Assembly: GCA_020052615.1 (NCBI GenBank)
Contig: JAGVOT010000128.1
Coordinates: 72,250 to 136,249 of the forward strand
DNA: 64,000 bases
Direction of reading: 5' to 3'
Origin: Nitrospirota bacterium
GTDB lineage: Bacteria; Nitrospirota; UBA9217
Both the position numbers and the translations under genes were made by a program. Shown piece by piece: positions 5,641-37,963 of the stretch; within the stretch, counting starts at the first letter, position 1; the number at the start of each line of letters is the position of its first letter. The notes below the pieces were generated by a model. That model was not told the DNA's origin. It ran no database searches and saw nothing but the letters and a program-made list of their open reading frames with translations.

Positions 5641-5672
5641 TTTGATCTGCAAAACTATTTGCTCTAATTCAT

Positions 5673-7289: not shown

Positions 7290-7404
7290 TTAACTTCCTG
7301 ATTTCGCCGCCGTGAGGGGCGCGTTTTTAGCGACCCTCTCGGCGTGGTTGAAATTATTGTGTCGTTTTTTATTCGCGCCTACCGAGCTGTCTATGTTGAG
7401 GTGC

Positions 7405-9621: not shown

Positions 9622-9786
9622 TTTTTACTTAGAAGTCTGACCGCGTGAGTGTACCGTCGTACATTTCAGCGGACGGACACGACCGCTGTTTGGATTTATG
9701 TCTTTTTTGTCGCATTTCAATGGCTGATGCCCTTTTATTCATGATTGTGTCGTTCTATCTATTATCTGTATCTCTCGAAAACGCGC

Positions 9787-10914: not shown

Positions 10915-10917
10915 AAT

Positions 10918-12606: not shown

Positions 12607-12825
12607 AGCCGTCGGTTTTTGGGTCTTTACCAGTTTAGCAAGGATGATATCAATAGAAAATATCTAAGCGTAATCCGCAAGCCAATTTGCTCCTTGTTGA
12701 ATCCAGGTTTCAGGAAGTACTCTCTAACTGAACGACTATATCATAAGATGTAGATTACACACAGTACTTTTCATCGGTCATAACAACAGTGAATTTCTCT
12801 ACTTTCCTTGGTCGAGCCTCTCCTT

Positions 12826-18901: not shown

Positions 18902-20104
18902 TTAATACATCCGATACAGCTCTTTCACCAATATTCCAGTGACCATCCTGTCATCGCTCTTTAACGATTCCGCCACTTTCAGCGCCCCTTCCATATGAGG
19001 CGTCGAAACCCCGATCTTTTTCGACATGTACGCCTCGAGGAAGGCCGAGAACTTGTCCGCTACTTCTACCAGTTCACCGTCAACGGGATTGAAGCGATCG
19101 TCGTTGTACTGTTTGCTGATGTCGTCGCTCGAAACGACCTCGATCTTCCCATCCTTCCGCACCTTGCTCGCGAATTCGTTCAGGGTGAAATACTTGAAAT
19201 CACCGAGCCACCCCTCTTCCAGCAGCGGGTAGATCTCTTCCTCGGCAAGCTCCCGCTCGATCTGGCTGATGGCCTCGGGCATACCCTCTACCGAATTCTT
19301 GACCGGCGAGATAATGTCCCGGGTCACGGCTTCGGGCAGATCGTGGAACAAGGCTCCGAAGAAGTTGTTGAAAAGCCGGCGATCGCAAGCTGGAATCTCG
19401 CGCGTTAGAAGGTAGGTTAAGCAGGCGGTCATAAGCATGTGACCCAGAACCGAGGTGCGCGGCAGCCGCGGGATGCCGCCCCATCGGACTTGAAACCGGA
19501 GCTGTCCACAGAGGTCGATGAAATCCGCTACCTTCCCGGCGGTCACGATCTTCCGCATGCCCACGAGGTCCATGTGCTGTTCGAGATCTCTCCTGAGCGC
19601 TTGCTCGATCTTCGGTATCTGGTACCCAAGTGGGTTGGTCTGGCGGATGATCTGAAATTCCCAATAGGTAGCGTAATGGTGTGCCGCAGCGAGGATCTTC
19701 CGCGTGAGAGGATCGAGGGTCTTCTCGTCCTCCAGGTAGTTCTTGAATTCGTCCCGAAGCGTCCCGCCCGCGACCGAATCGATCTCGGGCCCGATCTTCC
19801 CAAAGACCCAGCGGTTCAGTTCGGCGAACTGGTGAGGGTACTTGTCCTTGATCTTGTTATAAACGGGAGACTTGATGTCGGAGAGAACGATCCTGCGAAA
19901 GAGCTCGAACACGCCGCCCTTGATGATGCCGTGCCAGTCAACCTGCCGGCCTTCGCCCTCCTCGTATTTGCCGAGGCAGTAGGCGATGATCATCTTGTGG
20001 CTGTGCTTATCCAGCTCGGTCAGTTCGACGGGCCGGATCTTGTCGTTCCAACGCTGGATGTAGGATGCCTCGAAGAGGCGGAGCGCGAGTGCCTTGCTGA
20101 GCAT
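18902..20104 (-). CDS. HD-domain phosphohydrolase (long form, ~400 aa)
   Basis: SVLGHMLMTACLTYLL...GALFHDLPEAVTRD carries H...HD...D metal-binding motifs. GAGGAGG RBS upstream. Confidence 0.7.
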   Translation of the reverse strand: MLSKALALRLFEASYIQRWNDKIRPVELTELDKHSHKMIIAYCLGKYEEGEGRQVDWHGIIKGGVFELFRRIVLSDIKSPVYNKIKDKYPHQFAELNRWVFGKIGPEIDSVAGGTLRDEFKNYLEDEKTLDPLTRKILAAAHHYATYWEFQIIRQTNPLGYQIPKIEQALRRDLEQHMDLVGMRKIVTAGKVADFIDLCGQLRFQVRWGGIPRLPRTSVLGHMLMTACLTYLLTREIPACDRRLFNNFFGALFHDLPEAVTRDIISPVKNSVEGMPEAISQIERELAEEEIYPLLEEGWLGDFKYFTLNEFASKVRKDGKIEVVSSDDISKQYNDDRFNPVDGELVEVADKFSAFLEAYMSKKIGVSTPHMEGALKVAESLKSDDRMVTGILVKELYRMY

Positions 20105-20785: not shown

Positions 20786-21513
20786 TTACCTGATGGCTTC
20801 CTGACATTCATTTCTGAAACTGCATACCCGGCATTTACCTGGTGTCGGTGTCGCCCTTGGTGACTGACGGAACTGCAATGCCTTTCGCATCTGACCAATG
20901 ATCGACCTCACCGACTGCATAGCCCGTTGCATTTTAGGATTATCCTTGCGGAACGTGAACGACTTGTTCGGATACCGCAGATCAGCCTCCTTCTTACCCA
21001 CCACAAGCATCTGGGCAGCAACATAGAGCACATCTCCATGCCGCGCATTGCCCTTAATAGTCGCGCTCTTATATTCGACGGTCTTTCCCCGCTCAACCAC
21101 ATCAGGCTTGCAGGACAAGCCCAGGTCGTTATTCCGGTAAACCGTGACGCCTCTGCCGTCCAGATCCTGGTCAACGACCCATGACGTGATGCCGATTTTC
21201 CTTCTATCCCTGCGAAGCTTCAAATAGTACAAAGCGCCTATTGTAAAAGCGACAAGAGCCAAAGTAAGCATGCAATACCTCCAATCGTCATGAATTTTGA
21301 TATGACCGACTGCGTCTTCTGGGCCTGTCTTACCGGCCCGGACTTTTGTTGATGGAATTCCTGGCCACGTCTGGAAGGCTGAGTTGAGCATGACTGCTGT
21401 TGCAGCCTCCTCCGGCCTCCTGTTCTCAGGAGATACCATTGTCTGGGGCAGAAATCCCACTGTTTGAGCTCCGATGCGTTGATATTAGGCTTGTTTTTCT
21501 TCGTCATTTTCAT
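20786..21513 (-). pseudogene. Cas4/DUF83-like PD-(D/E)XK nuclease, apparently frameshifted (two overlapping ORFs in different frames).
   Basis: Frame A (21,513→) encodes INASELKQWDFCPRQWYLL, a Cas4-like N-terminal Cys motif. Frame B (→20,786) encodes PDVVERGKTVEYKS...HGDVLYVAAQML and C-terminal GKCRVCSFRNEC (D...ExK plus three Cys). The frames overlap over 21,238–21,460. Confidence 0.45.
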
Positions 21514-22696
21514 CCTCCGTTAAGTTTTCAGCTGACGCGGCCTTCTCTTGTTCGGCCATCTTCCCATCAAGAAACTTCTCGAATGCCGACCCGTCCCTTC
21601 TGGTCAGGTTCGGGATAAACCGGGAGTAGACCTTGAACAACATCTCCGTGTTGGCATGTCCCAGCTGCCTTGCCACCCATTCCGGATTCTCTCCGGATGC
21701 CAGCCACATCGTTGCCGCCGTATGGCGGGTCTGATAGGGTGTTCGGTCGGACAGCTCTGCCTTCTTGAGCGTTGGATACCACACCCTCTTGGAGATGTTA
21801 TTATGGTCAAGCGGCTTTCCACGTTTTGTTGTAAAGACGAGGTCACCGTTCCCAGTCTTCTCCTTTTGCCTCTTCAAGGCTTCTTCAACTGCTTTACTCA
21901 TATCGATATCCCGGACGGAACTCTGTGTTTTGGGGCTGACCCACTGTCCGCTCTGCCAGGTTTCGCGGACTTGGATCCTTTTCCCCGCAAAATCTACGTA
22001 CTTCCACTTGAGCCCGTCGATCTCTGCGGTCCTCATACCGGTAAAGAACCGGACCACGTAGTAGTCGTTGAACTCCTCCGGAACATGCTTCAGAAGCTGA
22101 AATACCTCGTCCGGCGAGAAAGGCATTATGTCGGTCTTCTTGAGCGGTAAGGGCTTGAAGTTAGTGAACGGGGTAGTAAAATCGTACTGTTCCGCCGCCT
22201 CGTTCATGATCAAACGGAGCACCAGGATGATATTGTTGATCCGTTTGTTGCTGATCTTCTGATCCTTCTTGCCCGGCAGGTCCCCCAGAGCCGTCCTAAA
22301 CTCCTTCACCATCCACTTGGTGATATCAAGAACCGGCTTGTCCTTGAAGTACGGGATCAGGTGCCGCTTCATGACCGACTGGAAGTCCCGTTGGACCGAG
22401 GGTTTCCAGGAGATCTTGTTATTCTTGTACCAGGTGTTGGCATACTCCTCGAACATCACGCCGATCTTTGGGCCGGTTTCTTCATTGAATTTCGATGCGT
22501 TCTTGCTATCAGGAAAATACTTGCCGTAACTGAAGGTCCCGAGCCTAATCTCACTCTCGATCCTTTTAAGAGCATCGTTCATGAGTTTGATGTTCTCAGG
22601 ACTTTCCTTGAGCTCCGTATACTCCTTGCATCGAATTCCTTTATACCTGAAGTCGAAGTACAGATACCCGGCCTCGGTGCGACGAACCTTACCCAT
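21485..22696 (-). CDS. int: Tyrosine site-specific recombinase (phage-type integrase)
   Basis: N-terminal Arm-type DNA-binding region. C-terminal catalytic region ...RHTAATMWLASGENPEWVARQLGHANTEMLFKVYSRF carrying the R/H/Y residues. Confidence 0.9.
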   Translation of the reverse strand: MGKVRRTEAGYLYFDFRYKGIRCKEYTELKESPENIKLMNDALKRIESEIRLGTFSYGKYFPDSKNASKFNEETGPKIGVMFEEYANTWYKNNKISWKPSVQRDFQSVMKRHLIPYFKDKPVLDITKWMVKEFRTALGDLPGKKDQKISNKRINNIILVLRLIMNEAAEQYDFTTPFTNFKPLPLKKTDIMPFSPDEVFQLLKHVPEEFNDYYVVRFFTGMRTAEIDGLKWKYVDFAGKRIQVRETWQSGQWVSPKTQSSVRDIDMSKAVEEALKRQKEKTGNGDLVFTTKRGKPLDHNNISKRVWYPTLKKAELSDRTPYQTRHTAATMWLASGENPEWVARQLGHANTEMLFKVYSRFIPNLTRRDGSAFEKFLDGKMAEQEKAASAENLTEDENDEEKQA

Positions 22697-24216: not shown

Positions 24217-25401
24217 TCATGATGTTCTTGTAAGCGCCGATAACGCAGATTCCACCCAGCCGAAGCCGATTCTTTCTTGCTCAAGACGCAGATTCCTGCG
24301 TATTCGGTTGTCTCGCAAATCATCATAAAGCGCCCTTTCCTCCGGATGCAACATAGCCAAGTCGCGTAGAGTCTGCTTTTCTTCCTCGCCCCATAGCGTT
24401 TCAAATGCAAACAACGTATTGCGGTCCATCAGAAACGACTCTACGTGTTCAAATTGACTGCGAAGTTGATCAAGGATCGCGAAGCCATGGGTATCAATAT
24501 CACCCCAATAAACAATACGGCGGTGGGAAAGCCACTCGGCTTTACTCAACATCTCGAAACCGTAGCCCGCGCCAAAGATAACCATACTGTCTTTGACCTG
24601 CGGAAAGGCTAAGAAGTTGATCTCGTTCTCGGTGATGAAGACACGTGAGACCTTGGGCTCGATACTGGCAAAACTCTCAGCATCAAGGGTAATGTCCTGT
24701 ATAAGAGCGCCCGGCAATAAAGCGCGCTTTGGATCGATTACCCGAAAGCGGATGCGCTCCGGCTTATCACAAAATCCATAACGCTTTGCGAATTGCCTCG
24801 TTCCAGAGGCCGTCGGATCAATTACTGCGGGCGATAGGACGATATCCAGCAACTCTTCGAGCACTGCACGATGGGCTTCGATGAACTTGCTGTGGACACT
24901 TGGGAGGTCTACTTGTCTTAGGTACACGCCAGGGCGTGGATGTTTTTGTAGCCAGCCGACTATTTCTAGCAGCAGACTCCACTCGTTAGAGAGCTCTAAC
25001 GCGCGAATCGGCCGTTTGGCCAACCAGCCCACCACTTGAGGCTGGCGCTTACGTGTTACATCGATCAACGCAGTGAAGCGGGTAACATCTCGTTGTTTGC
25101 TAATGAGTGCCAAGGCATCTTCGACGGTATCGATCCATACCTCATGGGGTACAGCATTTTCACCGAAGACACGGTGCTTGAACTCACGCATCTCGACTCG
25201 GCAGTGAGGCATCGCCCGAAGCTCACTGATCCAGGTGCGCGCCTCTTCGAAGTGATCGGCCATTTCACCCGACGTAGGGCCTTTGAACAGCAAACGCTTC
25301 GGGAATAGCGACTCACCCGTAACAAGACTGGCCAGCAGTTCTCCCCGATCCCATAACTTTTGCACCTGGGCACGAAGGTTAACCGGCCTTGTCCAATTCA
25401 T
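24217..25401 (-). CDS. jetD: Wadjet JetD (DUF3322/DUF2220, Toprim/topoisomerase VI-like)
   Basis: C-terminal VIFGAGYGFEML...IVYWGDIDTHGFAILDQLR matches the JetD/MksG Toprim-like module. Last gene of a four-gene jet operon. Confidence 0.8.
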   Translation of the reverse strand: MNWTRPVNLRAQVQKLWDRGELLASLVTGESLFPKRLLFKGPTSGEMADHFEEARTWISELRAMPHCRVEMREFKHRVFGENAVPHEVWIDTVEDALALISKQRDVTRFTALIDVTRKRQPQVVGWLAKRPIRALELSNEWSLLLEIVGWLQKHPRPGVYLRQVDLPSVHSKFIEAHRAVLEELLDIVLSPAVIDPTASGTRQFAKRYGFCDKPERIRFRVIDPKRALLPGALIQDITLDAESFASIEPKVSRVFITENEINFLAFPQVKDSMVIFGAGYGFEMLSKAEWLSHRRIVYWGDIDTHGFAILDQLRSQFEHVESFLMDRNTLFAFETLWGEEEKQTLRDLAMLHPEERALYDDLRDNRIRRNLRLEQERIGFGWVESALSALTRTS

Positions 25402-28400
25402 CCGACTATCCTCGCTTTTTCCGCGTGGTAATCCTCAATTGAGAGATTACGCAGTTTGGACGCTCGACCTTCCTCATTCTGAACAAACCCAACGCTAGAG
25501 ACGAATGGTTCAATGATGTGAATTTTCTGCAGAGGTGTGACAATCAGGATCTGCAAGTTGAGTTGGGCAAACAGTCGCAAGCCGTACTGTGCGGAGTCAT
25601 CTGATCCTCGCCCAAAGGCTTCATCGATGACCACGAAACGGAAGGATCGGGAACGTACCGCTCCCCATTCAAGACCGAACTGATAGGCCAGGCTAGCCGC
25701 CAAGATGGTATAGGCGAGTTTCTCCTTTTGACCTCCTGACTTGCCACTCGAATCAGAATAGTGCTCGTGTTCGCTATTGTCCTCGCGCCAGCGCTCGCTG
25801 GCGGCGAATACAAACCAGTTCCGCACATCAGTGACCTTGGCTTCCCAACGCCGATCCTGCTCGGATAACCCCTCTCGACCTCGAAAGCGTTCGATAATAT
25901 GCTTAACCTGCAAGAACTTGGCTTCGGAATATTGGGTATCGTCAGAACCGGTCAGTGCCCCTTCGGTACAGGCGCGCAGGTCGGTCTGAAAATCTCGGAT
26001 CTCGGCATCCGGTGTCGGTTGAGCTTCCAGCACGATATAGCGGCCGGCATTGTAGTCGATCTGGGTGAGCGACTTGTTGATATGTGCGATACGTTCCTTG
26101 ATTGTTTCTCTCTCGCGGGCCAACTGCGATTGAAAATTCGCCACCTCGCGGATGGTGTTTTCGTTCAGCAATTCCTTGAATCGAGCTTCAAAACGAGGTA
26201 GATCGTCGTTTTTTAGTTGGTGAAGCATATTCCGGTATTCGACAGCTGCTTCTATGCTGGCATCTACCTCTGCTGTTTCCAGCTTGAATTCTTCTTTGTA
26301 CGACGCCATTGCCTGGATGATCTTATCGCGCATACGTGTGCGCTTCAGGTCTTCGGCATCGATCCTGGACTGTAACAAGTCGCGCATGTCACGCTCGCGG
26401 TTGTCACAGGATTCGACAGTAAGTTGATGCTCGCCCACGGTCTCGCTTCGTATGGCATTAAGACGCTCGAAATGGAATGAGTGGCTCGTTTGCTCGGGTG
26501 TACTGACCAGCGCTAAGGCCTGGTCACGCAAATCTTCGGCAGCTCTGAGCTTGGCTTGAGTAGCCCCCAGTTCTTGGGTTTTTTTCGCAAGCTTTATCTC
26601 AGTATCAGCGAGTTCACCGCGAAGTGCTCTCAGTCGTTCGCTCAATTGCTTGAGCACATCTGAGGCAGACTCGAGCCTTTGCTTCTCGTCTGTAAGCTGA
26701 GCCACCTCCAAGGCAAGGGACTGCCAGTCGATTTCACGAAAATCAACGTACTCATCGAGTTTCGACAACGCCGTAAGGCGTTCGTCGAGCGTTTTTTGGT
26801 CGGATTGAATCTTGCCAATGAGGACGCCCAATTCTCCCAAGCTAGTCTCCAACTTTCTTTCTTTGGCTTCCAGTGCCGCTATTTTCGCCGCGTTAGTCCA
26901 GCCCAGCACATAGCGACCGCGATCATCCAGCCGGTAACGGTCGTCTTTTTCGTGACGCTCGCCGGGAGACTTGATTTGGCCCGCAAGCGTGATGGCGCGG
27001 GTCTCACGACGGAACTGCTCCTGTGTTGTGCAGCATGCCAGGTCGAAACGGTGAGCCACTTCACGTTCGAGCCAGTCGTAGAAAGGAGAGTCAGGCTTGA
27101 TGACTATTTTCCGCGCAAGGGAATCCCGGTGCAGATTAGGCAGATCGCGCTGAGAACCCTGGCGTATCCGAAAATAGACCAAACGTCCCCTTAGATGTGT
27201 TCTGTCGACCCAGTGAGACACCGCTACATAATGTTTATCTGGTACCAGAAGCGACAGACCGAAGCTACGCAATAGCCGTTCAGCGGCCCCCTCCCAGTCG
27301 CGTTCATCGTCACGGACTTGCAGCAGTTCGCCGGAAAAAGGCATATCCTCTTCTGGCAAGCCGAGTGCTTCGCATAACGCAGCGCGCATGGACACCTGCT
27401 CACCGGAAATGTTGCTGCGCCGGACTTTTAGACTGTTTATTTCCGAGGTCAGCTTTTCGTGCTCCTGCTTGCCCTGTCGAAAGTTCACGCCTTGCTCAGT
27501 GAGTTCGTTTTGCAGCTCCGCTTCACGAGTTTTCAACCCATTGCCCAGATCTCTGAAGCGACCATGCAACATAAGGAACTCGGCTTCCGTTTCGGCCGTG
27601 GCTTCGCCGACGGCGCGCACTAGCTTTCCGTATCGCTGCGCTTTCTCCAATCTTTTTTCCCGTTCTGTATCTTTGCTGCGAATGTCGGCTGCTAATCGCT
27701 CAATCCGATCGCCGCCGTTATCAGCGATACTTTGCTTGAGCTCGCCTTCGGTCACTCGCTGCGCGTCACGGAGTTCCTTAGTCCGCTTGACCTGGCTGTC
27801 TTGACGTCTCCATTCTCCATCAAGTCCTGAGATACGTTTTTCTAGCAGGCCGAGTTTCAGGCCTGCGAAGTAGGGTCCCAGCGCCTCGCGACAGGCGCGG
27901 AGTTCCTCCACTTGGGAAAGAAGGGAGTTATAGCGTTCACAATCAGAGACCAACGGTGAGAGCAGTTCCAGTTGACGCTTGGCCTTCAGTACAGCCACGT
28001 GCGCCCGGTTCAAGTCATCAAAATGGGCGATCAAGGCAGAGACGCGTGGCTCAACATCAAAAGGTTCAAGCATATGGCTGCGGACGAAGTCAGTCAGGTT
28101 ACCCACCGACTTCATCGACACCGTTTGGTGAAATAGCTCCAGTGCCTGTTCGTTCTCGATACCGAATCGACGACGAAACCAGGCGCCATAGGTCGGAAAA
28201 CTGTCAACCACCTCTGCGCCCAGACCACGCAATTTCTTCCGCAATCCGGTAATGTCCGGGCCGAAATGCGCGAAGTCCTCCGCAATCGACAATGCTCGCT
28301 CTGCGCCTACAAAGAAGCGGGCAGGCTGCGTCAGGGAGTCTTTCATCCAGAAGACCTGTGCCAGCGTGACCGTTTGTTCGTAGCCCGCGTTATGAAAAAC

Positions 28401-28772
28401 TCCCAGGATAACAGAGTAATTATTGTGGTCGCGAAGCGCTACAGGTTTGGCTGTGCCACTCACCTCATTGCGCTCGGACTTAAAATGCCCGAGCACATAG
28501 GATCGTAGCGTGCGTTCCTTGTTGTCGGCCCCGGCTGCCTTGTTGTAGGCGATGCGGTGCGCCGGCACCAGCAGCGTGGTGACCGCATCCACCAGTGTCG
28601 ATTTGCCCGATCCTATATCGCCGGTGAGCAAGATGTTCTTGCCGCTCGGATTCAGCGCCCACACTCGGCCATCAAAGGTGCCCCAGTTGAATACCTCTAG
28701 ACGATGCAAACGGAAGCCCGAAAGCACATCGCCGTCTGCACCAGCCAGACCCACGGTTTGCGCATCATCCAT
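25398..28772 (-). CDS. jetC: Wadjet JetC (SMC-like ABC ATPase)
   Basis: N-terminal Walker A (LLTGDIGSGKSTLVDA). Long coiled-coil middle. C-terminal signature/D-loop (GKSGGQKEKLAYTILAASLAYQF...FRFVVIDEAFGRGSD). Start placed at MDDAQTV to avoid overlapping jetB. Confidence 0.85.
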   Translation of the reverse strand: MDDAQTVGLAGADGDVLSGFRLHRLEVFNWGTFDGRVWALNPSGKNILLTGDIGSGKSTLVDAVTTLLVPAHRIAYNKAAGADNKERTLRSYVLGHFKSERNEVSGTAKPVALRDHNNYSVILGVFHNAGYEQTVTLAQVFWMKDSLTQPARFFVGAERALSIAEDFAHFGPDITGLRKKLRGLGAEVVDSFPTYGAWFRRRFGIENEQALELFHQTVSMKSVGNLTDFVRSHMLEPFDVEPRVSALIAHFDDLNRAHVAVLKAKRQLELLSPLVSDCERYNSLLSQVEELRACREALGPYFAGLKLGLLEKRISGLDGEWRRQDSQVKRTKELRDAQRVTEGELKQSIADNGGDRIERLAADIRSKDTEREKRLEKAQRYGKLVRAVGEATAETEAEFLMLHGRFRDLGNGLKTREAELQNELTEQGVNFRQGKQEHEKLTSEINSLKVRRSNISGEQVSMRAALCEALGLPEEDMPFSGELLQVRDDERDWEGAAERLLRSFGLSLLVPDKHYVAVSHWVDRTHLRGRLVYFRIRQGSQRDLPNLHRDSLARKIVIKPDSPFYDWLEREVAHRFDLACCTTQEQFRRETRAITLAGQIKSPGERHEKDDRYRLDDRGRYVLGWTNAAKIAALEAKERKLETSLGELGVLIGKIQSDQKTLDERLTALSKLDEYVDFREIDWQSLALEVAQLTDEKQRLESASDVLKQLSERLRALRGELADTEIKLAKKTQELGATQAKLRAAEDLRDQALALVSTPEQTSHSFHFERLNAIRSETVGEHQLTVESCDNRERDMRDLLQSRIDAEDLKRTRMRDKIIQAMASYKEEFKLETAEVDASIEAAVEYRNMLHQLKNDDLPRFEARFKELLNENTIREVANFQSQLARERETIKERIAHINKSLTQIDYNAGRYIVLEAQPTPDAEIRDFQTDLRACTEGALTGSDDTQYSEAKFLQVKHIIERFRGREGLSEQDRRWEAKVTDVRNWFVFAASERWREDNSEHEHYSDSSGKSGGQKEKLAYTILAASLAYQFGLEWGAVRSRSFRFVVIDEAFGRGSDDSAQYGLRLFAQLNLQILIVTPLQKIHIIEPFVSSVGFVQNEEGRASKLRNLSIEDYHAEKARIVG

Positions 28773-29406
28773 TGACGGCCCTTCCAGAGGTCGCAGCAAG
28801 CTGTGTCTGGTAGGCTGCCAATCGCGCATCGAAATCGGCCAGCCATTGTGCGTCCACAAAAGCCCTGAGAATTCGCCGCACCTCGAACATTTCTGCCTGC
28901 CCTATGCTCGGTTTAAGCCTGCGCAGGAATCCTAATTCAACTATCTTATTCAGATAGGTTTCAATCTGGTCGATTAACTTGGCTTCATTGCTGCTTTCGG
29001 GAAGGAACACCCGGATCAATTCAACGATGTCTTCACGGGAAAGCACAAGGCGCGTGTCGCCACCACTCGCGTCGAACTCTGCAAGCTTCTTGCGCAGCAG
29101 CGCCAGCAGCAGGCTCACCGGAAACGACAACGGACGCCGAGCCACCAAGCGCGGATGTTTTGAAGCCGCGTCTTCTTCACTTTCCTGGCGCGATTGCAAG
29201 AAGGCATAGCCCTCTGCCTCGTCAAACACCAGCTCCAGGCCCAGTACAGCCACATAGTCACGCACACGAGCTTGCAGGTTGAGCAAGGCGGTCCAAAGGC
29301 CGGCGTCAGCTTCTTGATAGATCACACCTTTGAGCAAGAAGATAAGCAGGGCCGACAAATCATTCGTTACCGCGGTGTTTACAGGTTTTTCTTCCGTCAT
29401 CTTCAC
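28765..29406 (-). CDS. jetB: Wadjet JetB (DUF4194)
   Basis: Size, position between jetA and jetC, and acidic/helical composition match JetB/MksE-like proteins. Confidence 0.65.
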   Translation of the reverse strand: MKMTEEKPVNTAVTNDLSALLIFLLKGVIYQEADAGLWTALLNLQARVRDYVAVLGLELVFDEAEGYAFLQSRQESEEDAASKHPRLVARRPLSFPVSLLLALLRKKLAEFDASGGDTRLVLSREDIVELIRVFLPESSNEAKLIDQIETYLNKIVELGFLRRLKPSIGQAEMFEVRRILRAFVDAQWLADFDARLAAYQTQLAATSGRAVNG

Positions 29407-30857
29407 CTCACAAAGATCACGCGCGGCAGACGTGCCTGCTTCGCATATTCCTGGCCAAGCGGACCTTCACAGTCCCAGACGACTGTTTCTGTCACGTTTT
29501 CATCCACCACGCTCTCGAAGACGCCACTGGCAAGCTGTAAATACGCCACCAGCTCTGCAAGGCCATGCTGCAGCGGCTGTATCTCGCACAGCTCACGCAA
29601 CGTAATTTGGGGACGATCCTGCAGGGCTTTCCGGATATGCCTGGCCAGTTGGTCTTTATCTATCACCACTTGAGTGTACAGTGCTACCGCATCCACTTCG
29701 GCGTCGCCTGACTCCAGATCGATATCGACAATCAAAGGTTTGATGGCAGGGGTATAGAGTGGCCTTTCCATCGGCAATTCGATGTCGGCAGCGATGTCTG
29801 CAATGTTCATCACCTCGCCCGGGGGCGGTGACTCTCGCAGTGCCAGTGACTTGGCCTCGATACCGTGCAGGATATCCATTATGCGGCGGTTCTCCAGCCA
29901 AGCCTGATCATCCAGAAAGCGCCGTAACTGCTGCGAAAGCTGGGCTACCATGCGCTGCGTATGCTCGCCAGCCTCAAGCCAATCGTAATGCAATCGGCGG
30001 GTGCGTGCGTCGGGCTTGAGCTCGGCGACCGCAGGCAGGGTCAAGACTCGATCAAGCAGCGCCGACAATTCGTCCTGCCGGCTGCTGGACATCAGGAAGT
30101 CCCAAAATGCGCGAAAACTACGTCCCTGATCCGAATCTGCAATCGCATCGCGTTCGCCCATGATTTCTTGCAGCAGCGTTCCTTTTGAACCCTCCCACAG
30201 CGCGATGCGTTCCCGCACGTGCCGATCCAGCCTAAGAAAGTTGTGTTCCACCTCTCGAAAATCGGTGAGCAGTTCACGCGCTAGCTGAATAAACTGTTGA
30301 AAGCGGTCCTTCAATGCTGTGTCGTCCAATAACGGAATGTCACCTGACAAAACGCGGGCAATTTCAGCATCAATCGCATCGCGTCGCTTATGCAATTCCA
30401 CAATACGAACTCGCGGATCAGTTTCGGTGCCTGCGTTCATCTGTTTGAGCAGTTCGAACAGTGTTAGCAAGCGCGACTCTGTACCCACGAAACTGCGCTC
30501 GGTGAGCGTTTCCAACCACGCAATCGCCTTCTCGGTCGCCGGGGTCAAATCGAAATGCGGCTCGTCCGAATCCTGCACGTAGAACTTTCGCAGCCAACCC
30601 TTCTCAGTCCCTGCCCAGTCGTTGAGGTAATCAAGCGGTGACTTCGGGAATGCGTCTGCGCCCAACCGTTCGCGCATGGCAAACAGTTCATCCTCAAGAG
30701 CCTCGGCCAAGTCCGCCTGAGATATCACTCGCACATTGTGTTCGATGAACACGCGCTGCAGAAAACTCGCCACCAGCGGCGCATGATCCGAGCGTAAAAG
30801 CCGCCAAGCAGGGTGGCTCTGCCGCAATTGATCGAGGGTTGTATAGTCGAGGGTCAT
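29403..30857 (-). CDS. jetA: Wadjet JetA (DUF3375, kleisin-like)
   Basis: 484-aa first gene of the operon. Overlaps jetB by 4 nt. Composition and size match JetA/MksF. Confidence 0.65.
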   Translation of the reverse strand: MTLDYTTLDQLRQSHPAWRLLRSDHAPLVASFLQRVFIEHNVRVISQADLAEALEDELFAMRERLGADAFPKSPLDYLNDWAGTEKGWLRKFYVQDSDEPHFDLTPATEKAIAWLETLTERSFVGTESRLLTLFELLKQMNAGTETDPRVRIVELHKRRDAIDAEIARVLSGDIPLLDDTALKDRFQQFIQLARELLTDFREVEHNFLRLDRHVRERIALWEGSKGTLLQEIMGERDAIADSDQGRSFRAFWDFLMSSSRQDELSALLDRVLTLPAVAELKPDARTRRLHYDWLEAGEHTQRMVAQLSQQLRRFLDDQAWLENRRIMDILHGIEAKSLALRESPPPGEVMNIADIAADIELPMERPLYTPAIKPLIVDIDLESGDAEVDAVALYTQVVIDKDQLARHIRKALQDRPQITLRELCEIQPLQHGLAELVAYLQLASGVFESVVDENVTETVVWDCEGPLGQEYAKQARLPRVIFVR

Positions 30858-31215: not shown

Positions 31216-32556
31216 TCATTCGATATAGACGCCAAACTGTGTCCTGTGACTTAAACCAAGATGGGTATGCACCTCGATAATCATATAATGCAAACCGCGA
31301 TATGCCGTTTCTTCCCAATGTGAGATATTGTCATGTTCTTTAATCGTAGTTACCGTTTTTTCAGTAACATGACTCCCGAACATTTCGCCGCCTTTAGTGC
31401 GTGCATCGACACCGTGATTTTCAACTTTGAATTTTATTGTGTAAGGCAGCATCGGCATATAGGGTAGCTTCATACTGAACTTGATACTTTTCCCTTTCGG
31501 CAAAAACCGGCTTGTTGAAGAATAGGTGCCTTCAAACTGGCCGCCCCGTTCATTAAAAATATCAGCCGAAATCCGAATACCGTCGGCGTTCTTTTGGTAT
31601 GTCGGATCGAACTGCGCGAGTGGTGAGTGTTTCAAATAAGAGTTCCAGTTGAGTTCATATTGCTTGTAATTTATCGGGTTGCCTCGTGCATCGGTATGGT
31701 TCGGTTGTAGATACGGGATGGGTACTTTATTGCCATTCGATGTAATTGACTTCACAGAAAGCAATTCATCGGGGAAGTCGATAAAGCTTCGTATCGATTC
31801 ACCAATCATGATCTGATTACGACCAGCCGCATGCTGCAATTTAGAGGCAACATCGACGAAGAAAGAAGTAGCAGTGACTTCCTCCATACCAGGATAGCCA
31901 TAAGAACGCCAAAGGACATCTGCTTCTTTGCCAAAATCGACGCCAACGCGAATTCCAAAAGGCTCCTTATATCCCATTGAATTCAATTTAGGGACAACGC
32001 TCTGCTCAACAAAATAACAGAGAACAGACGCGCAGTTCAGGCCGTCGATAATTCCGGTCTCCGGTGCAACTGTGCTTCCGCCGAAATATGCCATTACAGC
32101 GTCCCCCATGATTCTGTGGACATGACCGTTAAATGACTTGACAATCTCCATCGCAACGCGGATGAATGCATTCTTGATCCGATATACATCTTCCAGCGGA
32201 TATAGCAGGCTGAGGCGCGTAGAGCTCTCAATATCCATGAACAAAGTTGTAATTGGACATTTAATCATCAGGTCGGTCCCGAGAAGGTGCTTGAAATCGG
32301 GATGGTCACCAATGTCCGGACGCTGCGGCTCACCTTTTTGATAGAGGGGTCGAAGTATCCTCTGTATTGAATATTGGGGCACCAGTTCACGCGATGTAGA
32401 TTCTGAAAAAGATACCGCAGAATCCATCGATTTCGATGCCATCAATTGAGTGGCATTCTGCCTGCTCGCATCTTCAAGGTAGCACGAAAATGTATTCTGA
32501 AAACTATCCCTTACTCCCATACCGCCACATCTCCCTTCAGATAAGAGCCCAGACAA
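31216..32556 (-). CDS. Class-III nucleotidyl cyclase-domain protein with a ~150-aa uncharacterised C-terminal domain (PycC-like).
   Basis: TTLFMDIESSTRLS matches F-x-D-I-x-G-x-T. HRIMGDAVMAYFG matches K-x-I-G-D-A-x-M-A-x-F-G. GIRVGVDFGKEADVLW matches R-I-G-I-H-x-G. NQIMIGESI matches the (V/I)-x-V-S-E region. Confidence 0.7.
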   Translation of the reverse strand: MSGLLSEGRCGGMGVRDSFQNTFSCYLEDASRQNATQLMASKSMDSAVSFSESTSRELVPQYSIQRILRPLYQKGEPQRPDIGDHPDFKHLLGTDLMIKCPITTLFMDIESSTRLSLLYPLEDVYRIKNAFIRVAMEIVKSFNGHVHRIMGDAVMAYFGGSTVAPETGIIDGLNCASVLCYFVEQSVVPKLNSMGYKEPFGIRVGVDFGKEADVLWRSYGYPGMEEVTATSFFVDVASKLQHAAGRNQIMIGESIRSFIDFPDELLSVKSITSNGNKVPIPYLQPNHTDARGNPINYKQYELNWNSYLKHSPLAQFDPTYQKNADGIRISADIFNERGGQFEGTYSSTSRFLPKGKSIKFSMKLPYMPMLPYTIKFKVENHGVDARTKGGEMFGSHVTEKTVTTIKEHDNISHWEETAYRGLHYMIIEVHTHLGLSHRTQFGVYIE

Positions 32557-33073
32557 CCGAAATAATCTTAACCAAAATCATCAAACCCAGAGCCGGAAGC
32601 TGAACGAATAGAATGGCACCTATCGCTATCTTCATTTTCCGAAATTTATCATTGAGCCCTTTGGCCAGAGCATGAGCTTGCATGCAGCAATCCTTTAATA
32701 GCTCTTCATCAGTGGTTTCCTTGACACATTGATGGTAATCTTCTGGATTTTCGAATTCAGCGATATGACCAAAAAATATCTTTGAATGGTATTTCGCCGG
32801 ATTCTTCGGAGATTTCAAGAAAGGATTAATGACTTGAAACACTGCTGCTAATGAGACAAGTGATGATATTGCAGCCATGAGAAGCAGCAAACTTACGAGT
32901 ATCGCCGCGACTGCCTGAGACCCGAACGTCTGAAGCAAATCACCCCATTTGAGGACAATGGCACTAAAGATAAAAGTATCAAAGGCTACGATCACCGTCG
33001 CCTTCGTATTTGTAGTATTAATATAATGATCGAAACGGTTAATCACTTTCCAGAGAAAATCAGCAGAAGACAT
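32537..33073 (-). CDS. Small multi-pass membrane protein (two N-terminal TM helices, helical linker, C-terminal TM helix). Candidate pore-forming effector.
   Basis: Hydrophobic helices VIVAFDTFIFSAIVL, AVAAILVSLLLLMAAISSLVSLAAVF and IAIGAILFVQLPALGLMILVKIISVVWALI. Overlaps the cyclase gene start by 20 nt. Confidence 0.55.
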   Translation of the reverse strand: MSSADFLWKVINRFDHYINTTNTKATVIVAFDTFIFSAIVLKWGDLLQTFGSQAVAAILVSLLLLMAAISSLVSLAAVFQVINPFLKSPKNPAKYHSKIFFGHIAEFENPEDYHQCVKETTDEELLKDCCMQAHALAKGLNDKFRKMKIAIGAILFVQLPALGLMILVKIISVVWALI

Positions 33074-33358: not shown

Positions 33359-33772
33359 CTATGCCCCTTCGCCCGACATTGCGAGAAAGATAATCACTGC
33401 GAGCATTCCCGCAAAAAGCCCCATGGCTTGCAGCTGGGTGCTTTCCCGTCGACCGGTCGCAACATACCGCGCAAAGTGTTCGCAGTTGTTGCCGAACAGA
33501 TCATAAGCACTGTTTTCAACCGCCTTGTTGATTCTCGATATGGCATCGGGTTCATCGGTTATCCTGCCCAACTCTTTCCAGTCACCGGTATCCTCCAGGT
33601 GATCAAGACGGATTTGTGGAGGTGTCTGGTGAATAACAACTGGCCGCCGACCGTTCGGCAAATTCAACCGGTTACCGACATCAAGGATGCCGTAGTGATC
33701 AACCAAGACCCCTTTCATTTGGGTCTTCTGGATCAAGAGATAGAGTCCGGGTCTTCGAATATGGTGTGGCAT
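33359..33772 (-). CDS. LRAT/NlpC-P60 superfamily (papain-like) protein with a C-terminal membrane anchor.
   Basis: VDHYGIL (His motif) and YDLFGNNCEHFARY (NCEHF Cys motif), characteristic of the LRAT family. C-terminal hydrophobic GLFAGMLAVIIFLAM. Start uncertain (33,772 or 33,718). Confidence 0.5.
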   Translation of the reverse strand: MPHHIRRPGLYLLIQKTQMKGVLVDHYGILDVGNRLNLPNGRRPVVIHQTPPQIRLDHLEDTGDWKELGRITDEPDAISRINKAVENSAYDLFGNNCEHFARYVATGRRESTQLQAMGLFAGMLAVIIFLAMSGEGA

Positions 33773-33895
33773 GGATCCTCCTGCAGCCGATTCGCAATGT
33801 TTGGAATCTGTCGGCGTTCGCCTCTCTGCCAACGGTCTTCCAGTACTATCAGCCGGTATAATACAGAATGCCAGGCTCAAAACGTGAGCCCGGTA

Positions 33896-34891
33896 TTATT
33901 TCCCTTCGTTAGATTTTTCTCCCCCGCCTGGATACAAAGCTACGGCCGCGCTCAGCTGATCCGCAACCTCTTTCCGGAGAGAATCAGGTGATACAACTTC
34001 GACACCCGGTCCATGCTTCAAAATATCCATGACCAGCTCAAGCGAATTCGAATAGGGAATTGTAAGCACATAGCAGCCGTCTTTGAAGCACCCCTCCTGC
34101 TGCGGATGCCATTTTTCCTCGGACACCCAGCGTGCCCGTTCCGGCGTGAACCGGAGGACGGCTTTCTTCGTTGGTTTGCCGCCAAATATGCCGTATGAGG
34201 TGGCATAGTGAGCATCTAGCTCTTTGTCGGTAATTTCCTCGGCAGGAATGTCCAGCTCAGACGCTTTTCTGATCCGGTCGACTGAAAAGCTTCTAAGTAC
34301 CGTTTTCTTGTGATCCCATACGTCAAGGTACCAATTGTCCCTGTAATGGACGAGACGTTGAGGCGAGATCGTGCGCGCTGCCACCTCGTCCCGGGATCGG
34401 CTGTGATAAATGACCTCCATGCGTTTGCGCCGAAGCAGAGAACCCGCCACGCTTTGAAAATGCTCAGGATCCATGCGGCGGGCGGCCATGCCTAGGATAC
34501 GAATGCGTCGGGTGATCTCGCCCCCACCCATATGCTGAGACTGGAGAATCTGTTCGATACGGCTTCGCAAAGGAGTTAGATGGCCTTCAAGCAAGCCCGG
34601 CTGTACCTCGGTTAGCAATCGCTGAACGGTGAGCAATGCATACAGTTCCGATGCGTTGAACCATAGGCCGGGCAGTTCAAAAGGATGCTCGCCCGTCTTC
34701 GCATAATAGTACCCGGATTTTTCACGATCAAACTCGATAGGGGCGCAGAAGTAATTCCGCATATCACGGATGATTCGGTTGACCGTCGCGCGCGAGCACT
34801 CCAGCCGTTCTTGAAGGTTGTCACGTGAGACAGGATATCGAGCATTACTCAAAATCCGGTGCATGCTATAAATTCGATCGAATAGATCCAT
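33896..34891 (-). CDS. WYL-domain transcriptional regulator (HTH-WYL-WCX)
   Basis: AGGAGG RBS before MDLFDRIYSMHRIL. N-terminal HTH. Central ...LVHYRDNWYLDVWDH...RSFSVDRI WYL motif. C-terminal ...VLTIPYSNSLELVMDILKHGPGVEVVSPDSLR. Confidence 0.75.
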   Translation of the reverse strand: MDLFDRIYSMHRILSNARYPVSRDNLQERLECSRATVNRIIRDMRNYFCAPIEFDREKSGYYYAKTGEHPFELPGLWFNASELYALLTVQRLLTEVQPGLLEGHLTPLRSRIEQILQSQHMGGGEITRRIRILGMAARRMDPEHFQSVAGSLLRRKRMEVIYHSRSRDEVAARTISPQRLVHYRDNWYLDVWDHKKTVLRSFSVDRIRKASELDIPAEEITDKELDAHYATSYGIFGGKPTKKAVLRFTPERARWVSEEKWHPQQEGCFKDGCYVLTIPYSNSLELVMDILKHGPGVEVVSPDSLRKEVADQLSAAVALYPGGGEKSNEGK

Positions 34892-35204
34892 ATCTCCTCC
34901 TGGCCTTAGGAGTTTGTCCCCAATAAACGACAAAAGGCGACCTTAGAGATACAGGCCGCCAGCGAATATTTAATTGAATACCGGAAATTCAGCGTTTTTC
35001 TTCTACTAAGTCAGTTACGAGTATACATACAACATATTGTGGTGTCAATATATTTTTAACTACATTTAGCGATAGTCATGAGTTCAATTGACGGAACGTG
35101 TCTGAAAAAGAGATGGGTGGCGGATGGTGACTTCCCTCTTGATTTAGTATATTTTGTGTGCTATATTTCTCACCACAAGGGCTATTTAACGCCTTGGATA
35201 TACC

Positions 35205-36020
35205 ATGAAGACAGTCTCCGGAATAGGAAAAGAATCCCGCGTCCGCCTGGCTCAGATCATGCGCGAGACAAAGGGCACCATCACGGTGTTGCAGGCCGCA
35301 AAGATTCTGCGCCTCCCCGCTCCCACCGCATCGAAGCTCCTCTCCCGCTGGACAAATCAAGGCTGGCTTTCACGCGTTCGTCAGGGGCTATATGTCCCCG
35401 TCCCGCTTGAAGCGCGCACTCCCGACATTGCCCTTGAAGATCCCTGGATCATCGCTGAACAGCTCTATTCGCCCTGCTACATCGGCGGATGGTCCGCTGC
35501 CGAATACTGGGGATTGACCGAACAGCTCTTCCGCACCATCGTTGTGATGACGACGCGAAAGCCGCGCGATCGCAAACCCGCGATCAAGGACACGAACTTC
35601 CTCGTCAGAACAGTCCCCGCGAAAGCATTGTTCGGGACGAAACCGATATGGCGCGGCCAGGTCAAGGTGAACGTCTCCGACCAGACGCGAACGGTCCTGG
35701 ACATGCTGAACGATCCGGCTCTTGGCGGCGGGATTCGTCCGACCGTGGATGTGTTCAAGAGCTATTTGAAGTCAGAGCAAAAGGACACGACCCTACTCAT
35801 CTCCTATGCCGACCGCCTCGGGAACGGCGCAATATTCAAGCGCCTCGGCTTTCTTGCCGAGCGGTTCGCAAAGGACGAGAAGAACCTGATCGAGGCCTGC
35901 CGGTCCCGTCTGAGCGCGGGAAACGCGAAGCTCGACACTTCCCTTCCGGCCGACAGGCTGATTACAACGTGGAAGCTGTGGGTGCCTGCGGCATGGGCGA
36001 GGGAGAAGACCGGTGATTGA
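35205..36020 (+). CDS. abiEi: AbiEi-family type IV antitoxin / transcriptional regulator
   Basis: N-terminal HTH (...ITVLQAAKILRLPAPTASKLLSRWTNQGWLSRVRQGLY). Overlaps the AbiEii gene by 8 nt. Confidence 0.7.
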   Translation: MKTVSGIGKESRVRLAQIMRETKGTITVLQAAKILRLPAPTASKLLSRWTNQGWLSRVRQGLYVPVPLEARTPDIALEDPWIIAEQLYSPCYIGGWSAAEYWGLTEQLFRTIVVMTTRKPRDRKPAIKDTNFLVRTVPAKALFGTKPIWRGQVKVNVSDQTRTVLDMLNDPALGGGIRPTVDVFKSYLKSEQKDTTLLISYADRLGNGAIFKRLGFLAERFAKDEKNLIEACRSRLSAGNAKLDTSLPADRLITTWKLWVPAAWAREKTGD

Positions 36021-37443
36021 CAGACAGGAGATCATGGACTTTGCGAAGGAGTTCGGGCTTGCGCCGAATGTGGTTGAGAAAGACTACGTGCTCGGCTGGC
36101 TCCTGGCCGGGATAGCAAGTCATGCGGACCTCGGTCCCTCGTGGGTGTTCAAGGGCGGCACATGCATCAAAAAATGCTTCTTTGAAACATACCGCTTTTC
36201 CGAAGACCTCGATTTCACCCTCACCGCTGCGGCGCACCTTGATCAGGATTTTCTGAAACGATCCTTTACCGGCGTGACCCAGTGGGTCTACGAGAATTCG
36301 GGTATCGAGATCCCCGCGGACACGATCCGGTTCGAGGTCTATACCAACCCGCGCGGCAAGGTTTCTGCGCAGGGAAAGATCGGATACCGGGGACCACTGC
36401 AGCCGCGCGGCGATCTGCCGAGGATCAAGCTGGACCTGACAAATGACGAAGTGCTCGTGTTGCCGCCTGTCTCGCGTGAAGTCCACCACCCCTACTCGGA
36501 CGATCCGGAAGACGGCATCGCTGTCCAGTGCTACAGCTTCGAGGAAATCTTCGCTGAAAAGCTCCGCGCCCTGGCTGAACGCGAACGGCCGCGCGACCTC
36601 TATGATGTGATCCATCTCTTCCGGCACGAGGAGCTGAAGGCGAACCGAGAACAGATCATGAAGACGCTTGAACAGAAATGCGCCTTCAAGGGTATCGCTG
36701 TCCCGACCATGCAGTCGCTCGAGAACAGGCCGGAGCGCGATGAGCTTGTATCGGAATGGGATAATATGCTCGGCCACCAGCTGCCGATGCTGCCGGCCTT
36801 CGAGCAGTTCTGGAATGAGCTTCCTGCAGTCTTTGCCTGGCTGCACGGCGAAACGCCGCAGGCGGCTGTTGCTGCATCTATGCCTGTTGGGGCGGATGTC
36901 GATACCGCGTGGCAACCGCCGTCCATGGGCCATGCATGGCACGCACCGGTGCCTCTGGAAATCGTCCGGTTCGCAGCTGCAAACCATCTTTGCGTTGTGC
37001 TGGGGTATCAGGGGACGCAACGCTTAATCGAGCCCTATTCCCTGAGAATGACTAAGGACGGGAACCTGATTCTTGCTGCGGTCAAACACGATACCGGAGA
37101 AACCAGGTCCTACCGGGTCGACCGAATCGAGAGCGCGGAAGCCTCCACGGTTTCGTTCACGCCGCGTTATGTGATCGAGCTTACCCCTGCCGCGCCGATC
37201 CTCGCGCCGCCGACCAGGCGCACTGCGCATGTTGCGCGGACACCGAATGCGCGCAGTCCCTTTGCTTCACCGCGCAGAACAGGGAAAATAAAAACGAGCT
37301 GGGGTCCGACGTATGTTATTCAGTGTCCCATGTGCCAGAAGAAGTTCAACCGCAGCTCATACGACACTGCTCTGAACCCGCACAAGAATCAGATGGGTTA
37401 TCCATGCTCGGGCAGGACCGGTTATATCGTGGAAACGAAATAG
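36013..37443 (+). CDS. abiEii: AbiEii/AbiGii-family nucleotidyltransferase toxin (DUF1814) with a C-terminal WYL domain and Zn-ribbon.
   Basis: ...VFKGGTCIKKCFFETYRFSEDLDF plus downstream acidic motifs match AbiEii. C-terminal LCVVLGYQGTQRLIEPYSLRMTKDGNLILAAVKHDTGETRSYRVDRIES is WYL-like. Terminal C-P-M-C...C-S-G cysteine cluster. Confidence 0.8.
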   Translation: MIDRQEIMDFAKEFGLAPNVVEKDYVLGWLLAGIASHADLGPSWVFKGGTCIKKCFFETYRFSEDLDFTLTAAAHLDQDFLKRSFTGVTQWVYENSGIEIPADTIRFEVYTNPRGKVSAQGKIGYRGPLQPRGDLPRIKLDLTNDEVLVLPPVSREVHHPYSDDPEDGIAVQCYSFEEIFAEKLRALAERERPRDLYDVIHLFRHEELKANREQIMKTLEQKCAFKGIAVPTMQSLENRPERDELVSEWDNMLGHQLPMLPAFEQFWNELPAVFAWLHGETPQAAVAASMPVGADVDTAWQPPSMGHAWHAPVPLEIVRFAAANHLCVVLGYQGTQRLIEPYSLRMTKDGNLILAAVKHDTGETRSYRVDRIESAEASTVSFTPRYVIELTPAAPILAPPTRRTAHVARTPNARSPFASPRRTGKIKTSWGPTYVIQCPMCQKKFNRSSYDTALNPHKNQMGYPCSGRTGYIVETK

Positions 37444-37464: not shown

Positions 37465-37755
37465 TCAGACGTTAAGTTCGATTATGCTCATGACCTTTGC
37501 ATAATCTTTCCCATCAGGATCCTCGAAGGGTGCAAACAGAACCTTGTCTCCTGCTTTGAGATCAACCTTAGTTTGCGCAAGTGCCCGGTCATCGATTGCA
37601 TAGACCGCCTCATCAGCAAGAGATCGGATCTTGCCTTTCTTAGTGTTAAAATCGAATTCCAGGATCACCCCTTTTTCTTTTGCCAACATTTCGTCCCAGA
37701 AAAGCTCCTGGTCCTCTTCCGAAAGTCCAACGATCGGCTGATCGTCTTTCCCCAT
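37465..37755 (-). CDS. Hypothetical small acidic protein
   Basis: 96-aa ORF with a plausible start. No recognised motifs. Confidence 0.35.
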   Translation of the reverse strand: MGKDDQPIVGLSEEDQELFWDEMLAKEKGVILEFDFNTKKGKIRSLADEAVYAIDDRALAQTKVDLKAGDKVLFAPFEDPDGKDYAKVMSIIELNV

Positions 37756-37789: not shown

Positions 37790-37833
37790 ACAGGGAGTGT
37801 CCTGTTAGTGTCCTGTTAGCGTCCTGTTAGCGT
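37790..37833. repeat. 11-bp tandem direct repeat (GTCCTGTTAGC-like, 4 units)
   Basis: gtcctgttagt gtcctgttagc gtcctgttagc gtcctattact, about 55 bp from the tRNA 3' end. Confidence 0.6.
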
Positions 37834-37886
37834 CCTATTACTAAAGCAAAGGGGTTCCAGCATATGCTGGAACCCCTTGAAATGAT

Positions 37887-37963
<77 letters not shown>

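Follow-up and report, generated by a model that had tools for sequence, protein, structure and literature searches.

The abiE module described here occupies positions 35205-37443 of a 64,000-nucleotide (nt) stretch of Nitrospirota bacterium DNA (GenBank assembly GCA_020052615.1, contig JAGVOT010000128.1, positions 72,250 to 136,249 of the forward strand), referred to below as the window. Two plus-strand open reading frames (ORFs) fill this span exactly. The first encodes the antitoxin and regulator AbiEi, and the second a toxin of the AbiEii type in which a nucleotidyltransferase (NTase) core is continued by a WYL domain, a basic linker, and a zinc finger. The features of the module are listed below; coordinates are positions in the window, and residue numbers here and throughout are those of the 476-residue toxin unless stated otherwise.

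35139-35167, plus strand: candidate sigma-70-like promoter, TTGATT-17-TATATT with TG before the -10 element, about 38 nt 5' of the AbiEi ATG (consensus scan only)
35205-36020, plus strand: abiEi, antitoxin/regulator gene, 271 amino acids (aa), ATG start
35247-35399, plus strand: N-terminal winged helix-turn-helix (wHTH) of AbiEi, AbiEi residues 15-65
35463-35861, plus strand: AbiEi C-terminal domain, AbiEi residues 87-219
35999-36005, plus strand: Shine-Dalgarno GAGGGAG for the toxin gene, inside the end of abiEi, about 7 nt 5' of the GTG (read from the sequence)
36013-37443, plus strand: abiEii-type toxin gene, 476 aa, GTG start
36013-36846, plus strand: NTase core of the DUF1814/AbiEii fold, residues 1-278 (Pfam, Foldseek, and conserved motifs)
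36847-36954, plus strand: connector with conserved D297-x2-W300-x-P-P303-x-M305-x3-W309, residues 279-314 (alignment)
36955-37185, plus strand: WYL domain (Sm-like beta-barrel) with a conserved trailing strand, residues 315-391 (Pfam and Foldseek)
37186-37302, plus strand: disordered basic linker rich in R, K, S, T, and P, residues 392-430 (predicted local distance difference test [pLDDT] 24-32)
37303-37443, plus strand: C2HC zinc finger and stop codon, residues 431-476, ligands C438, C441, H457, and C465

The two genes overlap by 8 nt, the toxin GTG lying inside the abiEi stop region (GGTGATTGA), and this overlap suggests translational coupling. The GTG appears to be the right start because the N-terminal MIDRQEI that follows it is conserved in homologues. 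Overlapping or abutting gene pairs with the antitoxin gene first are likewise found at related loci (L001-L005 of the genome scan described below). The candidate promoter comes from a consensus scan upstream of abiEi that gave 3 sites against 1.7 expected and carries no weight for function.

The original prediction had called this pair an AbiEi-AbiEii module, and the ORFs are as it described them. The toxin matches Pfam AbiEii (PF08843, also DUF1814 or COG2253) over residues 29-267 (E = 8.7e-42; 144 bits against a cut-off of 22.5), and the whole of the antitoxin is matched by PADLOC's AbiEi model PDLC02271 (E = 3.2e-115). In an AlphaFold2 (AF2) model of the toxin built on 62 homologues (mean pLDDT 77.5, predicted template modelling score 0.73), the core matched MenT4 (6y56, E = 8.6e-8), TglT/MenT3 (6j7q, E = 6e-7), and JHP933 (4o8s) in Foldseek comparisons with the PDB, all with probability 1.00. 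The catalytic signature, consisting of K47-G-G-T50, R61-F-S63-E-D65-L-D67, D141, E182-K183, and R192-P-R-D195-L-Y-D198, is invariant in 62 homologues, the number to which conservation in the toxin refers below. All four NTase motifs defined in PMC7450476 are kept: motifs I/II, the Pol-beta G-[GS]...D-x-D with a third acidic residue (G48-G49, S63-E-D65-L-D67, and D141); motif III, a Lys (K183); and motif IV, R-x-x-D-L-Y-D (R192-P-R-D-L-Y-D198). The profile alignment of the toxin with MenT4 spans both KGGT...RFS.DLDF and EK...RDLYD.

These likenesses bear on what the toxin is likely to do. Its best structural matches, Mycobacterium tuberculosis MenT4, MenT3/TglT, and MenT1, share with it the KGGT...S-x-D-x-D, EK, and RDLYD elements. 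MenT3 extends tRNA 3'-CCA ends and blocks charging (PMC7450476), and Streptococcus agalactiae AbiEii acts on tRNA, with UTP more than with CTP (bioRxiv 10.64898/2026.01.19.700257). By analogy, the chemistry of the toxin is likely to be that of MenT, nucleotide addition to tRNA 3' ends, although identity to the MenTs is only 12-18%, and those toxins are single-domain proteins of about 290 aa that lack a WYL domain or zinc finger and whose antitoxins vary in type. In the same 2026 preprint, AbiEi is shown to bind AbiEii and to make it auto-phosphorylate an active-site Thr, and AbiE is reclassified as type VII, which leaves the "type IV" label of the original prediction dated. The toxin has an invariant S63-E64-D65 in which S63 stands two residues before the first catalytic Asp, matching MenT3 S78/D80 and AbiEii T65 by motif position; S63 would be the equivalent of the phospho-acceptor residue.

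Beyond the core, the estimate that the toxin exceeds a typical AbiEii by some 170 aa was about right, with the core ending near residue 278 and MenT4 and TglT having 290-292 aa. The connector that follows is modeled at pLDDT 58-74 and is well conserved (W300, W309, and P314 invariant; D297, P303, and M305 near-invariant). It leads into a domain that Pfam recognizes as WYL (PF13280, residues 317-376, E = 4.9e-7; 30.1 bits against a gathering score of 21.8; profile positions 5-69 of 70), and C-terminal fragments of homologues match the same model in 22 of 22 cases (best E = 7e-11). The peptide first quoted as a WYL signature, RLIEPYSLRMTKDGNLILAAVKHDTGETRSYRVDRI, corresponds to residues 337-372. 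In the AF2 model a helix (residues 315-323) precedes a five-strand barrel (strands within 326-381; pLDDT 83-93), for which Foldseek returned PafBC, CapW bound to single-stranded DNA (ssDNA) (9c5g), ssDNA-bound DriD, and BrxR from the PDB; the match to the DriD C-domain (7tzv_M) has a root mean square deviation of 1.9 Å over 75 columns (probability 1.00). Profile and structure thus agree with the original assignment of a WYL domain to the toxin.

The residues that give the WYL domain its name are degenerate in the toxin (L352-I353-L354, and L-L-L in most homologues). This does not exclude membership, because true members also vary, as with NYL in DriD. What is kept is a basic/aromatic patch made up of R337, R365, Y367, R368, D370, and R371. 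Alignment to the WYL domains of DriD, PafB, and PafC equates R337 with DriD R178, R365 with R204, Y367 with W206, and R368 with R207. Single-stranded nucleic acid is the ligand of the solved WYL domains of DriD, CapW, and PafBC, with cyclic di-GMP (c-di-GMP) in one case, and the ssDNA-contact residues of DriD, a protein that also binds single-stranded RNA (ssRNA) more weakly, are given in PMC9186387. The regulators with a helix-turn-helix (HTH), WYL, and WCX domain (DriD, CapW, BrxR, and PafBC) offer a close comparison for the barrel, sharing its Sm-like fold and an R...R-S-[YW]-R-x-D-R-[IM] patch with which DriD and CapW touch ssDNA. The toxin itself is not a member of that regulator family: HTH and WCX are absent among its Pfam matches, and its WYL domain is joined to an enzyme rather than to a DNA-binding domain.

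The linker running from the WYL domain to the finger is poorly conserved in sequence (39% column identity compared with 73-82% in the domains, and 57% S, T, P, G, or A), yet it is always basic, with a mean net charge of +6.4 and a minimum of +2. In the window toxin the net charges are -14 for the NTase core, +8 for the linker, and +4 for the finger.

The terminal cluster of cysteines noted in the original prediction is real. C438, C441, H457, and C465 are all invariant, with the spacing CxxC-x15-H-x7-C. The accompanying label of a Zn-ribbon does not fit, because the ligands are three Cys and one His with a single CxxC knuckle, and the tail is better described as a C2HC finger. A profile of the C-terminal 181 residues matches C2H2 fingers in the PDB (Gfi-1, E = 8e-5; Aart; ZBTB20), and the C2H2 pattern fits as far as the first His (Y434-x3-C438-x2-C441-x3-F445-x8-L454-x2-H457), the second His being replaced by C465 at +8. 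Among 22 homologue fragments, 20 matched Pfam zf-C2H2 weakly and below threshold, and 8 matched Zn_ribbon_8 weakly. The AF2 model shows residues 431-476 as a small beta-rich unit with a beta-hairpin at the CxxC and no helix (pLDDT 76-90).

Some natural variants are without the finger, namely P0241 (400 aa), P0225 (435 aa), and the 424-aa toxin of locus L050 (2116-3390), a second abiE copy in a related Nitrospirota metagenome-assembled genome (MAG; CAVVUN010000001.1). The L050 toxin is about 80-87% identical to the window toxin and ends inside the linker, and the MAG that carries it also holds a full-length copy (L007). As a separate matter, the last ~45 residues of homologue P0002 (472 aa, 78% identical) bear no likeness to the consensus of the finger and seem to be the same DNA read in a shifted frame, a sequence error in metagenome data.

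The antitoxin falls just short of the Pfam thresholds for AbiEi_4, the wHTH (23.5 bits against a cut-off of 25), and for AbiEi_1, the C-terminal domain (17.9 against 22.2), the two matches being in the correct order, and its score against the NCBIfam equivalog TAA_AbiEi is far under the cut-off. A homologue search nevertheless returned 5001 proteins, named AbiEi family antitoxin in their sources. A sequence search of the PDB gave no AbiEi match, only an ArsR wHTH (E = 0.74). The AbiEi partners in the long-toxin clade are themselves long, at 266-277 aa. Compared with AbiEi/AbiEii of Lactococcus lactis and S. agalactiae, with which the module shares an operon of two genes headed by that of the wHTH antitoxin, the PF08843 NTase motifs, and strong PADLOC AbiE matches, the antitoxin here is about 70 aa longer and has Pfam AbiEi matches below threshold, while the toxin is about 190 aa longer by virtue of its connector, WYL domain, basic linker, and C2HC finger.

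To place the locus among its relatives, we draw on a protein search over 5.8 billion proteins and on a species scan with one pattern and one genome per species (185,579 species). The protein search gave at least 7797 toxin homologues; the best 120 are 409-493 aa long and 60-95% identical, and almost all carry PF08843 plus PF13280. A search of 1.84 billion representatives with the C-terminal module alone gave 803 clusters at 50% identity, 411 of them with E<=1e-10. The survey of how common such fusions are yielded at least 515 loci in the 185,579 species genomes, spread over Nitrospirota, Thermodesulfobacteriota, Beta- and Gammaproteobacteria, Acidobacteriota, Spirochaetota, Planctomycetota, Verrucomicrobiota, Atribacterota, and others. 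Synteny and fusion were counted over 80 of these 515 loci: the NTase is fused directly upstream of the WYL tail in 76 of 76, an AbiEi homologue lies upstream in 70 of 71, and the finger is present in 79 of 80. Gene neighbors are wholly different from locus to locus (CRISPR-Cas, other toxin-antitoxin [TA] pairs, the inside of a type I restriction-modification operon, and elsewhere), and such varied contexts are what one expects of a mobile module of two genes. Plasmids of Ca. Thiodictyon and of cultured Rhizobium hold full-length relatives with ~50% identity, and the Prokaryotic Genome Annotation Pipeline (PGAP) names them AbiEii/AbiGii toxin and AbiEi antitoxin. A tblastn search of 50,697 phage records for phage carriage gave no match. 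Within a large clade of the AbiE/MenAT type (COG5340 AbiEi plus DUF1814 NTase) that has spread horizontally, the locus is an ordinary member.

Many of the matches to the tail are proteins of only 200-240 aa, and a stand-alone WYL-zinc finger family was considered and rejected. All of these matches begin at the invariant internal M252 ("MLGHQLP..."), because of which we read them as truncated gene calls on short contigs.

With this breadth of occurrence it is exceedingly improbable that the long ORF is an artefact, in the sense of a mis-assembly or frameshift joining two genes, or of a WYL match arising by chance. The frameshifted tail of P0002 does show that such errors occur in metagenome data, and nothing else speaks in favor. 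The same continuous ORF, at 460-493 aa, recurs in the best 120 homologues, in 76 of 76 independent genome loci, on the Rhizobium plasmids, and in a syntenic Nitrospiraceae MAG (L006) at 93% nucleotide identity, and the WYL domain is backed independently by a hidden Markov model (HMM) and by structure. The shared length and Pfam pair in thousands of proteins dispose of the mis-assembly that the original prediction had named as one of the things that would refute it.

The WYL-tailed toxin architecture is already known, and has been since 2014. Makarova, Anantharaman, Grishin, Koonin, and Aravind (PMC4012209) list a fusion of WYL to DUF1814 ("AbiGII-like nucleotidyltransferase") and propose ligand regulation of an Abi system. 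Moreover, one PADLOC AbiEii model, PDLC02317 (396 positions), covers residues 1-396 of the toxin from its first position to its last (E = 1.4e-192); because it spans both domains, a published defense HMM already holds NTase and WYL as one unit. The original prediction had presented the fusion as a distinct regulatory logic, and as a claim of novelty this does not survive the earlier listing and its ligand idea, the reach of PDLC02317, or the 515 species loci. The architecture here is that of the WYL-DUF1814 fusion as it appears there and in PDLC02317, and the finger tail found in 79 of 80 loci is extra to it; neither PMC4012209 nor PDLC02317, as far as could be read, describes the basic linker with its C2HC finger. 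NCBIfam has no model specific to the long toxin, and recent mechanistic papers on AbiE/MenAT do not mention WYL.

How such a toxin would work can be sketched from its relatives. By analogy with MenT1, MenT3, MenT4, and S. agalactiae AbiEii, the toxin would add nucleotides to tRNA 3'-CCA ends and so block aminoacylation and translation. AbiEi, again as in relatives, would repress the operon through its wHTH and would neutralize the toxin, probably by inducing auto-phosphorylation of S63. The WYL domain, basic linker, and zinc finger may then together form an arm that binds single-stranded nucleic acid, giving the acidic NTase core affinity for RNA (the tRNA 3' end) and a means of target selection.

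There is precedent for a WYL domain in this kind of role. The WYL domain of PIF1-family helicases binds ssDNA, and the Cas13d accessory protein WYL1 binds ssRNA. In both, WYL is attached to or helps an enzyme whose substrate is single-stranded nucleic acid, and they serve us as a model for an accessory substrate-binding module as opposed to a small-molecule sensor; their catalytic partners differ from the NTase.

We favor the reading that the tail is a substrate-recruitment or specificity arm, and hold it to be about evenly poised between right and wrong. It is favored because the ssDNA-contact patch is kept, the linker is always basic, the finger is C2H2-like, the core is acidic, and the substrate is a single-stranded 3' end; gating is no likelier than a substrate-binding role, given that tRNA 3' ends are what this family of toxins works on. 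Several observations weigh against it. The best-studied WYL domains (DriD, CapW, and PafBC) are sensors, not substrate binders, and PMC4012209 reads the WYL-DUF1814 fusion as ligand sensing. Short AbiEii and MenT toxins act on tRNA with no such tail. In the WYL alignment DriD Y192, which hydrogen-bonds an ssDNA phosphate (PMC9186387), is replaced by I or L in the toxin and its homologues, and the loop with DriD S172 and R176 is missing, the beta1-beta2 loop being ~6 residues shorter in the toxin; nucleic-acid binding by the toxin WYL is for these reasons not guaranteed. The argument from net charge is a crude one, and the finger is not essential to the clade, because variants without it exist. 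On the antitoxin side, the AF2 model of AbiEi is poor (pLDDT 63, with residues 66-120 of AbiEi below 50), its Foldseek matches are wHTH proteins only, and the C-terminal fold of AbiEi finds no structural confirmation in them. An operator inverted repeat sought in 34900-35260 amounted to short, weak repeats, none convincing. A literature search returned no experimental study of a long-form or WYL-fused AbiEii, only the 2014 listing, and what we infer for the tail is pure inference to that extent.

The main rival has the WYL domain sensing ssDNA, RNA, or a nucleotide that arises from phage replication or DNA damage and allosterically switching the NTase on. This we regard as possible, though less probable than a substrate arm. 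Such a switch might work by relieving auto-inhibition or by blocking AbiEi-induced phosphorylation, with sensing and killing in one polypeptide. Structurally characterized WYL regulators all use the domain as a signal sensor (of ssDNA in DriD, CapW, and PafBC and of c-di-GMP once), those sensors are what Foldseek returns for the barrel, and most ligand-contact residues are kept; the idea was also put forward for the DUF1814 fusion in PMC4012209, and a built-in sensor would fill a gap in how phage triggers AbiE. Signaling of the CapW type, however, uses a WYL Trp packed on the linker helix together with a WCX dimer domain, whereas the toxin has Leu and no WCX; a basic disordered linker and a finger are foreign to WYL sensors and look like generic nucleic-acid-binding parts; and the single-stranded 3' end of the toxin's own substrate is a simpler candidate for the WYL ligand. 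In its fullest form, which we would entertain only tentatively, this rival makes long-form AbiEii a self-contained sensor-effector whose WYL domain detects phage ssDNA or RNA and frees or activates the NTase, with the finger and linker helping to capture the signal; if true, AbiE would have a direct infection trigger independent of antitoxin decay. A third idea, which we consider improbable, is that the tail has its binding partner in the abiE operator DNA or in AbiEi, so that the toxin acts as co-repressor or is kept near its antitoxin, much as conditional cooperativity works in type II TA systems. The tail would then touch neither the toxin's RNA target nor any signal. The resemblance of the tail profile to C2H2 fingers that bind double-stranded DNA (dsDNA) is in keeping with this idea, as is the co-inheritance of the clade's long AbiEi with the long toxin (70 of 71 loci), but specific dsDNA binding is rare for a single finger, no repeated operator-like motif lies in the upstream region searched, finger-less variants persist, and toxin-DNA contact is not reported in the AbiE/MenAT literature examined (including PMC7450476 and bioRxiv 10.64898/2026.01.19.700257).

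The window locus itself is a routine, recognizable defense module in a defense island, with nothing unexpected about it. A clade with a built-in WYL/zinc-finger module is, however, a natural testing ground for what triggers AbiE/MenAT systems and for their choice of RNA targets: it is abundant (hundreds of species), it is present on plasmids of cultured Rhizobium, and it offers natural finger-less and tail-less variants.

The island in which abiE lies has the following other features, and abiE is on the opposite strand to the other island genes.

21485-22696, minus strand: tyrosine integrase (Arm-DNA-bind_2 and Phage_integrase), on one side of the island
24217-30857, minus strand: complete Wadjet JetABCD operon (JetA/DUF3375, 29403-30857; JetB/DUF4194-MksE, 28765-29406; JetC, SMC-like, 25398-28859; JetD, 24217-25401)
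31216-32556, minus strand: Pycsar-like cyclase with a C-terminal AGS-C sensor domain (Guanylate_cyc weak; AGS_C, E = 3e-13)
32537-33073, minus strand: 2TM/PycTM effector (PADLOC, E = 3.5e-40), upstream of the cyclase gene with a 20-nt overlap
33359-33880, minus strand: LRAT/NlpC-P60-like (papain-fold) protein, 173 aa, between the WYL regulator and the Pycsar-like genes
33896-34933, minus strand: HTH_11-WYL-WCX regulator, 345 aa, divergent from abiEi (all three domains by Pfam)
37887-37963, minus strand: tRNA-Met, just beyond abiE on the other side

The integrase on one flank and tRNA-Met on the other suggest a 16-kb integrated defense island. A direct repeat of the tRNA-Met 3' end was sought as an island border, and none was found. 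G+C content across the island is mosaic, at 0.44-0.59.

The regulator at 33896-34933 is separated from abiEi by an intergenic region of 271 bp, which contains a near-consensus minus-strand promoter (TTGACA-17-TATACT at 35048-35020), and among solved structures it is nearer to the activators PafBC, PafC, and DriD than to CapW. A part for it in the abiE module was considered and rejected, because it and abiE are neighbors in the syntenic Nitrospiraceae MAG (L006) alone, none of the other 79 loci having it. The most likely source of the window is itself a Nitrospiraceae genome. The regulator is more likely a neighbor that serves the Pycsar-like operon. The protein at 33359-33880 matches nothing in PADLOC or NCBIfam and may be one more effector, or an accessory gene, of the Pycsar-like operon. 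The Pycsar-like pair itself (31216-33073) fits the "Pycsar-2" subclade of bioRxiv 10.64898/2026.08.12.744502.

A few further observations concern the edges of the island and the rest of the window. Between abiE and tRNA-Met lies a minus-strand ORF of 96 aa (37465-37755) that is 92% conserved in L006; between its start and tRNA-Met there is an 11-nt tandem repeat, GTCCTGTTAGC, at 37799-37840 (3.8 copies, 93% matches). Just outside the integrase, a 400-aa protein (18902-20104, minus strand) has an HD/YfbR-like 5'-deoxynucleotidase in its C-terminal half and an N-terminal half of 190 aa, and it may serve either nucleotide-depletion defense or housekeeping. Farther away, positions 3000-13000 form a 10-kb block of low G+C content (0.39-0.49 compared with 0.51-0.60 in the flanking DNA), which may be another horizontally acquired segment.

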